DNA from: Eledone cirrhosa
Lineage: Eukaryota
Reading direction: 5' to 3'
NCBI GenBank assembly: GCA_964016885.1
Contig: OZ024742.1
Location: 250,108,001 to 250,172,000 of the forward strand
Length of the DNA: 64,000 nucleotides
Translations under genes and position numbers: made by a program
Part shown: positions 9,201 to 12,333 of the stretch, piece after piece
Numbering within the stretch: position 1 is the stretch's first letter
How the letters are laid out: every line of letters starts with the position of its first letter
The notes under the pieces: model-generated
Databases searched by the model: none
Seen by the model: only the letters and a program-made list of their open reading frames with translations
Told to the model about the DNA's origin: nothing

Positions 9201-9913
9201 AACTAGTTTCGTTGTTGTTACAACTCATCAGCAATATTTACCTATCTTCCGGCCTCTCTAGAGAATCGTAAAAGCACATATCGTTATATGCTTTTTCTAT
9301 GAAAATTAGTAGTGGGCAGACTAATTTGCATAGAGTGTGAGTAAGTACCGGTTCAACGGAGACGATAAAAACAAATAACGAAACGAAATTAAATTTCGTT
9401 TCGTTTGTAACTCACTTTTGTATGACTGACGCTTAAACAATTAAGTTAAAGATGTACATCCATATATGTATACTGAAATACTAGTATGTATATGAATACA
9501 CACACGTATACATATGTAGATGTACCAAGTTTTTTCACTGGCCACTTTACTGTGAGTGGCCAGCTATTCTGTATGTAAACACACAGACAAACCGGTTTTT
9601 AGAGTCATACTGGTTTTTGAGGAAACACCTTTCCTCTATTCTCCAGAAAGCCAGACAAGGAATATTGAACTAGTTTCGTTGTTGTTACAACTCATCAGCA
9701 ATATTTACCTATCTTCCGGCCTCTCTAGAGAATCGTAAAAGCACATATCGTTATATGCTTTTTCTATGAAAATTAGTAGTGGGCAGACTAATTTGCATAG
9801 AGTGTGAGTAAGTACCGGTTCAACGGAGACGATAAAAACAAATAACGAAACGAAATTAAATTTCGTTTCGTTTGTAACTCACTTTTGTATGACTGACGCT
9901 TAAACAATTAAGT
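3294..9913 (-). mobile_element. Retrozyme-like tandem array, left arm: about 14.2 x 467-bp units with 14 HHRs on the minus strand
   Basis: Exact 467-bp period (ORF track 3485, 3952 ... 9556); only scattered SNPs; one HHR per unit. Confidence 0.9.
3590..3634 (-). ncRNA. Minimal type I hammerhead ribozyme (first of 19 copies)
   Basis: Minus strand: AATATTG-CTGATGA-GTTG taacaa CAAC-GAAA-CTAG-TT-CAATATT; 7-bp stem I, 4-bp stem II, palindromic ACTAGT stem III, predicted GUU cleavage between 3597 and 3596. Confidence 0.92.
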
Positions 9914-12333
9914 ACATCTACATATGTATACGTGTGTGTATTCATATACATACTAGTATTTCAGTATACATATATGGATGTACATCTTTAACTTAATTGT
10001 TTAAGCGTCAGTCATACAAAAGTGAGTTACAAACGAAACGAAATTTAATTTCGTTTCGTTATTTGTTTTTATCGTCTCCGTTGAACCGGTACTTACTCAC
10101 ACTCTATGCAAATTAGTCTGCCCACTACTAATTTTCATAGAAAAAGCATATAACGATATGTGCTTTTACGATTCTCTAGAGAGGCCGGAAGATAGGTAAA
10201 TATTGCTGATGAGTTGTAACAACAACGAAACTAGTTCAATATTCCTTGTCTGGCTTTCTGGAGAATAGAGGAAAGGTGTTTCCTCAAAAACCAGTATGAC
10301 TCTAAAAACCGGTTTGTCTGTGTGTTTACATACAGAATAGCTGGCCACTCACAGTAAAGTGGCCAGTGAAAAAACTTGGTACATCTACATATGTATACGT
10401 GTGTGTATTCATATACATACTAGTATTTCAGTATACATATATGGATGTACATCTTTAACTTAATTGTTTAAGCGTCAGTCATACAAAAGTGAGTTACAAA
10501 CGAAACGAAATTTAATTTCGTTTCGTTATTTGTTTTTATCGTCTCCGTTGAACCGGTACTTACTCACACTCTATGCAAATTAGTCTGCCCACTACTAATT
10601 TTCATAGAAAAAGCATATAACGATATGTGCTTTTACGATTCTCTAGAGAGGCCGGAAGATAGGTAAATATTGCTGATGAGTTGTAACAACAACGAAACTA
10701 GTTCAATATTCCTTGTCTGGCTTTCTGGAGAATAGAGGAAAGGTGTTTCCTCAAAAACCAGTATGACTCTAAAAACCGGTTTGTCTGTGTGTTTACATAC
10801 AGAATAGCTGGCCACTCACAGTAAAGTGGCCAGTGAAAAAACTTGGTACATCTACATATGTATACGTGTGTGTATTCATATACATACTAGTATTTCAGTA
10901 TACATATATGGATGTACATCTTTAACTTAATTGTTTAAGCGTCAGTCATACAAAAGTGAGTTACAAACGAAACGAAATTTAATTTCGTTTCGTTATTTGT
11001 TTTTATCATCTCCGTTGAACCGGTACTTACTCACACTCTATGCAAATTAGTCTGCCCACTACTAATTTTCATAGAAAAAGCATATAACGATATGTGCTTT
11101 TACGATTCTCTAGAGAGGCCGGAAGATAGGTAAATATTGCTGATGAGTTGTAACAACAACGAAACTAGTTCAATATTCCTTGTCTGGCTTTCTGGAGAAT
11201 AGAGGAAAGGTGTTTCCTCAAAAACCAGTATGACTCTAAAAACCGGTTTGTCTGTGTGTTTACATACAGAATAGCTGGCCACTCACAGTAAAGTGGCCAG
11301 TGAAAAAACTTGGTACATCTACATATGTATACGTGTGTGTATTCATATACATACTAGTATTTCAGTATACATATATGGATGTACATCTTTAACTTAATTG
11401 TTTAAGCGTCAGTCATACAAAAGTGAGTTACAAACGAAACGAAATTTAATTTCGTTTCGTTATTTGTTTTTATCGTCTCCGTTGAACCGGTACTTACTCA
11501 CACTCTATGCAAATTAGTCTGCCCACTACTAATTTTCATAGAAAAAGCATATAACGATATGTGCTTTTACGATTCTCTAGAGAGGCCGGAAGATAGGTAA
11601 ATATTGCTGATGAGTTGTAACAACAACGAAACTAGTTCAATATTCCTTGTCTGGCTTTCTGGAGAATAGAGGAAAGGTGTTTCCTCAAAAACCAGTATGA
11701 CTCTAAAAACCGGTTTGTCTGTGTGTTTACATACAGAATAGCTGGCCACTCACAGTAAAGTGGCCAGTGAAAAAACTTGGTACATCTACATATGTATACG
11801 TGTGTGTATTCATATACATACTAGTATTTCAGTATACATATATGGATGTACATCTTTAACTTAATTGTTTAAGCGTCAGTCATACAAAAGTGAGTTACAA
11901 ACGAAACGAAATTTAATTTCGTTTCGTTATTTGTTTTTATCGTCTCCGTTGAACCGGTACTTACTCACACTCTATGCAAATTAGTCTGCCCACTACTAAT
12001 TTTCATAGAAAAAGCATATAACGATATGTGCTTTTACGATTCTCTAGAGAGGCCGGAAGATAGGTAAATATTGCTGATGAGTTGTAACAACAACGAAACT
12101 AGTTCAATATTCCTTGTCTGGCTTTCTGGAGAATAGAGGAAAGGTGTTTCCTCAAAAACCAGTATGACTCTAAAAACCGGTTTGTCTGTGTGTTTACATA
12201 CAGAATAGCTGGCCACTCACAGTAAAGTGGCCAGTGAAAAAACTTGGTACATCTACATATGTATACGTGTGTGTATTCATATACATCCTAGTATTTCAGT
12301 ATACATATATGGATGTACATCTTTAACTTAATT

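Follow-up and report, generated by a model that had tools for sequence, protein, structure and literature searches.

The window, the whole 64-kb stretch of DNA that was analysed from a 3.0-Gb assembly, is rich in (TA)n tracts. Between the two halves of one such tract lies an array of ~9 kb, built from 467-bp units of 35% GC, and its centre is the strand switch under study. Unit positions are numbered from window position 9912. The features of the array are as follows.

3179-3296, no strand: (TA)n target, left half
3294-9913, minus strand: left arm, made of 14.2 retrozyme units (467 bp each, in tandem), with its outward 3' end at unit position 161 (the long or 'T' end)
3294-3362, minus strand: tail of 69 nt (unit 93-161), at the outer end of the left arm only
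9645-9716, minus strand: counterpart hammerhead on the opposite strand, in the innermost unit of the left arm, from the Rfam search
9912-9913, no strand: head-to-head junction, where the arms overlap by GT (2 nt; minus-strand unit 80-81, plus-strand unit 1-2)
9912-9983, plus strand: GTACATC..GATGTAC hairpin, unit 1-72 (GTACATC is unit 1-7, GATGTAC unit 66-72)
9912-12338, plus strand: right arm, 5.2 units, with its outward 3' end at unit position 92 (the short or 'S' end)
10188-10259, plus strand: type I hammerhead ribozyme, one per unit, with a palindromic short helix III and a predicted cut after unit position 325
12337-12396, no strand: (TA)n target, right half

The original prediction described a head-to-head array with 3' ends outward and the hammerhead on the minus strand to the left and the plus strand to the right. 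Both points were confirmed by the copies listed above and by the exact hammerhead core, which is present in 14 minus-strand and 5 plus-strand units, 19 in the window. The predicted 2-bp GT microhomology is also real, since the periodicity of the left arm stops at 9913 and that of the right arm begins at 9912; at a single junction, a 2-nt overlap has an 18% probability by chance. The inner ends are unit 80 (left arm) and unit 1 (right arm), giving a junction offset of 79 nt. Outward, the left arm enters (TA)n at unit 161, and the right arm does so at unit 92. Over ~9 kb, nine bases depart from the consensus of the arms, which makes this a young insertion. Each of the inner five full units of the left arm carries one or two changes, while the outer eight are identical and may be partly the product of local duplication.

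The junction had additionally been placed at the base of the GTACATC..GATGTAC hairpin. The right arm does begin at that base, but the left arm ends 8 nt short of the other foot. As a cause of junctions, the hairpin was discarded: inner ends fall within 5 nt of unit 1 in 3 of 114 cases, against 2.7 expected, and it has no general role at junctions. Matches to miRNAs at the junction were read as hairpin noise.

The Rfam profile HH9 aligned with the ribozyme at 37.7 bits (E 1.4e-07), under its gathering score of 52, and at the gathering score no Rfam match was retrieved. The unit folds strongly (z -11). The array interior has no reading frame of 100 aa, and two TA-derived frames touch its edge. 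Genome-wide, the hammerhead core has 5105 exact matches, which makes it a dispersed multi-copy family. Judged by sequence, the array is an insertion of an animal non-LTR retrozyme, predicted to be self-cleaving. Like the retrozymes in the available text of PMC7229834 and bioRxiv 10.64898/2026.07.22.740005, it is a non-coding, low-GC tandem with a type I hammerhead and thousands of dispersed copies; its unit is just above the 150-450 bp given in the former and inside the 51-972 bp given in the latter.

The stretch is present in sequencing runs under 17 organism labels from 16 studies, for which related species, transfer and contamination are all possible, and none of the runs containing it is recorded as RNA. 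One 497-nt contig (467+30) closes on itself and matches the window unit without difference over the aligned part; it is the sole match in its run, the kind of which is unrecorded. This contig could be an expressed circle, a tandem transcript or trace DNA.

Orientation was followed in 145 fetched loci, comprising 105 and a further 40 that were obtained after the tests had been fixed. The 3' ends point outward at 102 of 103 strand switches (75/76 in the first set and 27/27 in the second), in samples rather than a census, as most loci were chosen by end patterns on one chromosome. One locus (L081) had no match, and another (L075) duplicates L074; the duplicate is included in the first-set orientation and end-pair counts and left out of the homology, containment, arm-divergence and junction-overlap tests. 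The sole inward switch consists of two adjacent outward insertions (L092). In the first 100 of the 5105 core matches, unselected on ends, all 11 switches under 1 kb run from minus to plus. The expectation that nearly all inverted copies have their 3' ends outward was therefore upheld in all three samples.

This regularity bears on another explanation, an assembly artefact caused by a chimeric fold-back read, or else an inversion of the chromosome that arose later within an ordinary satellite. Among the assembled contigs of seven public sequencing runs, none crosses 9912, as an artefact would predict, and a run of raw reads gave no alignment; these runs may come from other individuals or species, and contigs lose rare variants. 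Neither process, however, would choose polarity or ends, and 102 further junctions, both old and young, share this polarity. The 79-nt junction offset, the two family-specific sites at which the arms end and the left flank, which is single copy with one match in the genome, likewise oppose an artefact or inversion, which we consider very improbable. Searching the genome with the left flank for an empty (TA)n allele gave that single match only.

The two outer ends are not equivalent. Genome-wide, exact end-plus-TA patterns number 1913 at unit 161, and 931 and 623 at units 87 and 92, respectively. The window array and thousands of exact ends abut TA, on which most loci were selected. Within the first 134.5 Mb, 43 of the 48 end pairs less than 20 kb apart are long-short and outward, and the sole long-long pair is made of two insertions (L059). 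Where both ends of a two-arm locus could be classified, the first set (105 loci, one duplicate) contains 57 long/short, one short/short and no long/long, and the 40-locus set 23, one and none. Combined, there are 80 long/short (unit 161 versus 84-92), two short/short and no long/long insertions. Another 18 junctions in the first set and three in the second showed an end that was cut, truncated or short/short. The long end carries a tail of 69-74 nt. By scoring, 14/103 and 8/40 loci are single-armed; a short-motif test on 27 seemingly single-arm loci found, in 13 of them, a very short inverted arm with the opposite type of end, some of these arms being short enough for chance. In both locus sets, inner ends are scattered over the unit. 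Fixed outer ends together with scattered inner ends suggest that synthesis began outside. No target-site duplication was found in 74 two-arm loci, where TA flanks would mask one. A single-arm copy (L090) has, by eye, an apparent ~45-bp target duplication.

Two Penelope-like elements in the window have a comparable two-arm structure.

20930-22598, minus strand: decayed Hydra-like remnant, long arm with tail (nuclease fragment 22111-22506, no RT)
22599-22743, plus strand: inverted short-end arm of the Hydra-like remnant
26883-29727, minus strand: Neptune-type Penelope-like element, long arm with tail, whose RT and GIY-YIG frame is broken by stops or shifts
29728-31037, plus strand: inverted short-end arm of the Neptune-type element, with the GIY-YIG part and 3' region

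The element at 26883-31037 has a C-terminal GIY-YIG domain, a CX2-5CxxC linker and an internal cysteine pair, the Neptune motifs as defined in PMC8557442; on this motif-based assignment, it could also be Nematis. A further element at 31652-33085 has a CxCX5C linker and no CCHH, following the Hydra-type definition. The linker of the remnant at 20930 is decayed, and its Hydra placement derives solely from 30% identity (E 3e-21) to the nuclease at 31652-33085. The original prediction had assigned the layout of the array to two coding elements, at 26921-31037 and 20929-22743, both ending in or beside TA tracts. Both are indeed inverted with their 3' ends outward, but the latter is a decayed nuclease frame lacking an RT, and the tail of the former reaches ~26883, where it meets (CT)17 before (TA)n.

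The genome also harbours a young autonomous Neptune-type family of 4204 bp, with many near-identical copies and a 775-codon frame. Ten inverted loci of this family were inspected; a long and a short end are present in 8/8 readable loci, two being unreadable. Their arms sometimes contain two or three 4.2-kb units, and private changes are often common to both arms. The pairing of a long with a short end is a Penelope-specific signature that is also found in an autonomous element of this genome. Head-to-head multimers of young 4.2-kb Neptune-type copies with intact frames, 99-100% alike, occur at G000:C4:322579500-322604000 and C26:20690500-20710000.

Comparison of the unit with 60 loci of the two neighbour families revealed no real homology, the best 40 matches being low-complexity and to unit 1-74. 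A survey of TA-abutting ends retrieved other families, none of which shared unit sequence. The unit ends (..TTAAT and ..TTTAT) look closer to Neptune-type than to Hydra-type ends, a weak hint at the partner element.

Additional inverted elements were observed at 17073-17458, 31090-31357, 37937-38608 and 38656-39995. The first two lie between TA tracts and have one longer arm, and in that at 37937-38608 each strand carries hammerhead-like cores. At 12397-12694, beside the array, and at 20552-20870, beside the Hydra-like remnant, a TA tract is faced by one and the same repeat end, suggesting that TA tracts collect nested insertions. AP-endonuclease LINE fragments (Pfam RVT_1 and Exo_endo_phos) and a transposase-like frame lie at 12785-15704 and 34091-35142; the frame, which had no Pfam match, resembles Tc1/mariner.

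The two arms of an insertion share their private sequence. Across 56 loci, the median divergence is 0.5% between the two arms of a locus and 4.4% between arms of different loci. No sampled arm is closer than the partner in 38/56, and the partner ranks among the nearest 8% (0.08 or better) in 56/56. Locus L043 has 20 units over its two arms, all identical to one another and at least 0.6% divergent from any other sampled arm, and L125 behaves like L043, which fits copying round a circle. Recurrent changes at L094, L120 and L077 indicate that later local duplication has also taken place. A 14.6-kb insertion (L052/L053, C1:5738084-5752729) has a short-end arm of apparently ~30 units, of which the ends were sampled, and a long-end arm of 0.7 unit.

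Shared private sequence is also accounted for by self-priming, which has already been proposed for head-to-head Penelope copies in the portion of PMC3846280 available. In such a fold-back, the cDNA would form a palindrome whose distal end a nuclease would resolve at the second fixed site, and a later asymmetric deletion of the centre would hide the symmetry. Overlap at the junctions would be explained as well, and a few near-symmetric junctions fit (6/75 within 10 nt, with 3.4 expected). Fold-back nevertheless needs one arm to lie within the other. Neither arm is inside the other in 15/57 insertions, against 15.3 expected (range 10-21) for independent lengths and 0 for fold-back, and the second set gave 9/23. 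Simple fold-back cannot explain the combined 24/80, which fit neither order and include copies 97-100% identical to the unit. Palindrome centres can undergo asymmetric deletion after insertion, which could mimic this containment result. A further 13/80 insertions would need the short-end arm to be made first, second arms of only 7-20 nt lie far from the 5' end of the first arm, and the changes carried by the inner units of the left arm are not mirrored in the right-arm units of the window. Taken with these observations, self-priming is an unlikely origin of the arrays.

A different possibility is priming at the same target by two separate RNA-protein complexes, whose two RNAs would stem from a single burst of one source locus. 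The geometry is that described for L1 'dual priming' (PMC2837659), and the near independence of arm lengths (Spearman 0.23, p 0.09) agrees with it. Equal complexes should, however, often yield long-long products, of which there are 0 in 82 classified pairs, and the arms never come from different subfamilies, as the partner ranks given above (56/56) attest. We regard separate complexes as improbable, somewhat more so than self-priming.

At the inner join, an overlap of at least 2 nt was scored in 31/74 cases (22 of the 74 being insertions), against 18% by chance (p 2e-6), a figure that locus references may inflate. With a global reference, it was present at 21/39 non-insertion joins, and 34 more joins scored as insertions, many via divergence. 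Two other candidate signals were set aside. Truncation just past the ribozyme cut site, as from linear monomers, occurred in 20/148 against 9.5 expected in the first set and in 2/54 against 3.5 in the second, and was not replicated. The idea that the long-arm RT collides with the short site (10/57 against 5 expected, control p 0.2) was likewise rejected; long-arm 5' ends lay near the short site in 12/57 insertions and 6/57 controls (p 0.2).

Geometry, fixed paired ends, non-nested arms, shared private sequence and the in vitro extension of both strands discussed below together point to two target-primed starts on one template, where one molecule is indistinguishable from two identical ones. 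In our preferred reading, to which we give a probability of roughly 0.7, the retrozyme array was laid head-to-head into (TA)n by a Penelope-like RT and GIY-YIG nuclease that primed both cut strands on the same RNA. The nuclease would nick both strands of the TA tract. Of the two RTs, one would begin at unit 161 and its counterpart ~70 nt upstream of this, at 84-92; each would copy a variable length and run past the monomer boundary, probably by travelling round a 467-nt RNA circle. The 3' ends of the two cDNAs would then anneal over 0-7 nt or be linked through a few extra bases, with gaps filled by host repair, and some arrays would later be enlarged by local duplication. Counting against this reading are the lack of shared sequence between the unit and the neighbour families, the absence of target-site duplications at two-arm loci, the loci scored as single-armed and a tail that exceeds published lengths.

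Reverse transcription primed on both strands, in a manner resembling twin priming, had been anticipated. The outward ends and the long/short pairing are consistent with it, but the fixed starts and overlapping arms are unlike L1 twin priming. As in L1 twin and dual priming (PMC2837659), there are two inverted pieces with 3' ends outward and a short overlap at the inner join; unlike in L1, there is no poly(A), the second start is fixed, the arms overlap and repeat instead of lying on either side of a deletion, and inversion is the usual outcome rather than a minority one. The proposed mobiliser, a Penelope-like RT with a GIY-YIG nuclease, fits the Penelope-specific end pairing that the array has in common with the autonomous element, although the unit has no sequence in common with either neighbour family. 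Penelope-like elements have also been proposed as retrozyme helpers (PMC7229834; bioRxiv 10.64898/2026.07.22.740005, in the parts available).

Endonuclease-bearing Penelope-like elements have an inverted, 5'-truncated head-to-head copy and a tail at one end, according to the accessible sections of PMC3846280, PMC8557442 and PMC2377424. The array resembles them in its partial tandems, inverted 5'-truncated copy, one-end tail and probable (TA)n targeting. It differs in having no ORF, up to ~30 units per arm, no homology to the two families compared and a tail of 69-74 nt rather than the 30-40 nt reported. Self-priming or nuclease resolution is invoked in those same sections. The green anole Poseidon protein cleaves and extends both strands in vitro, with two RT start sites bounding a tail (PMC11167929, available in part). 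Cutting and extension of both strands at AT-rich DNA and two internal starts that bound the tail would be shared, whereas that system is in vitro with an autonomous RNA, and its starts are AC-rich rather than U-rich on the ribozyme strand as here. The available Poseidon text has no model of the inverted product.

For retrozymes, copying round a circle has been proposed (PMC7229834, in part). The portions of PMC7229834 and preprint 10.64898/2026.07.22.740005 at hand describe no inverted arrays, fixed ends or tail, all of which are present here. The available part of the preprint favours in-place array growth, while here both arms are often multimeric with one private sequence. Opposite-strand ribozyme pairs are mentioned in passing in the accessible text of PMC4209133, and the sections of PMC8490949 and PMC12910113 available contain nothing on this subject. 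Our literature search retrieved no report of inverted retrozyme insertions or of two-strand priming behind them; older Penelope papers and supplements might contain such a model. The inverted, tailed geometry is known for autonomous Penelope-like elements and, as far as searched, is new for retrozymes.

Which enzyme moves retrozymes and how the inverted, one-tailed insertions of Penelope-like elements originate are open questions in the literature. The thousands of short insertions described here record both start sites to the base. Their footprint, rather than co-occurrence, connects the spread of retrozymes with Penelope-type chemistry and speaks against self-priming as published. With a 467-nt RNA having two mapped starts and near-identical intact candidate enzymes in the genome, the mechanism is testable in vitro. 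More tentatively, and with odds that we place somewhat below even, Penelope-like enzymes may use two primers by default: a dimer would nick both strands of TA, and two RTs starting ~70 nt apart on one RNA circle, one following the other, would produce head-to-head multimers in one step. If true, inverted pseudo-LTRs, one-sided tails and animal hammerhead satellites would all trace back to this default.
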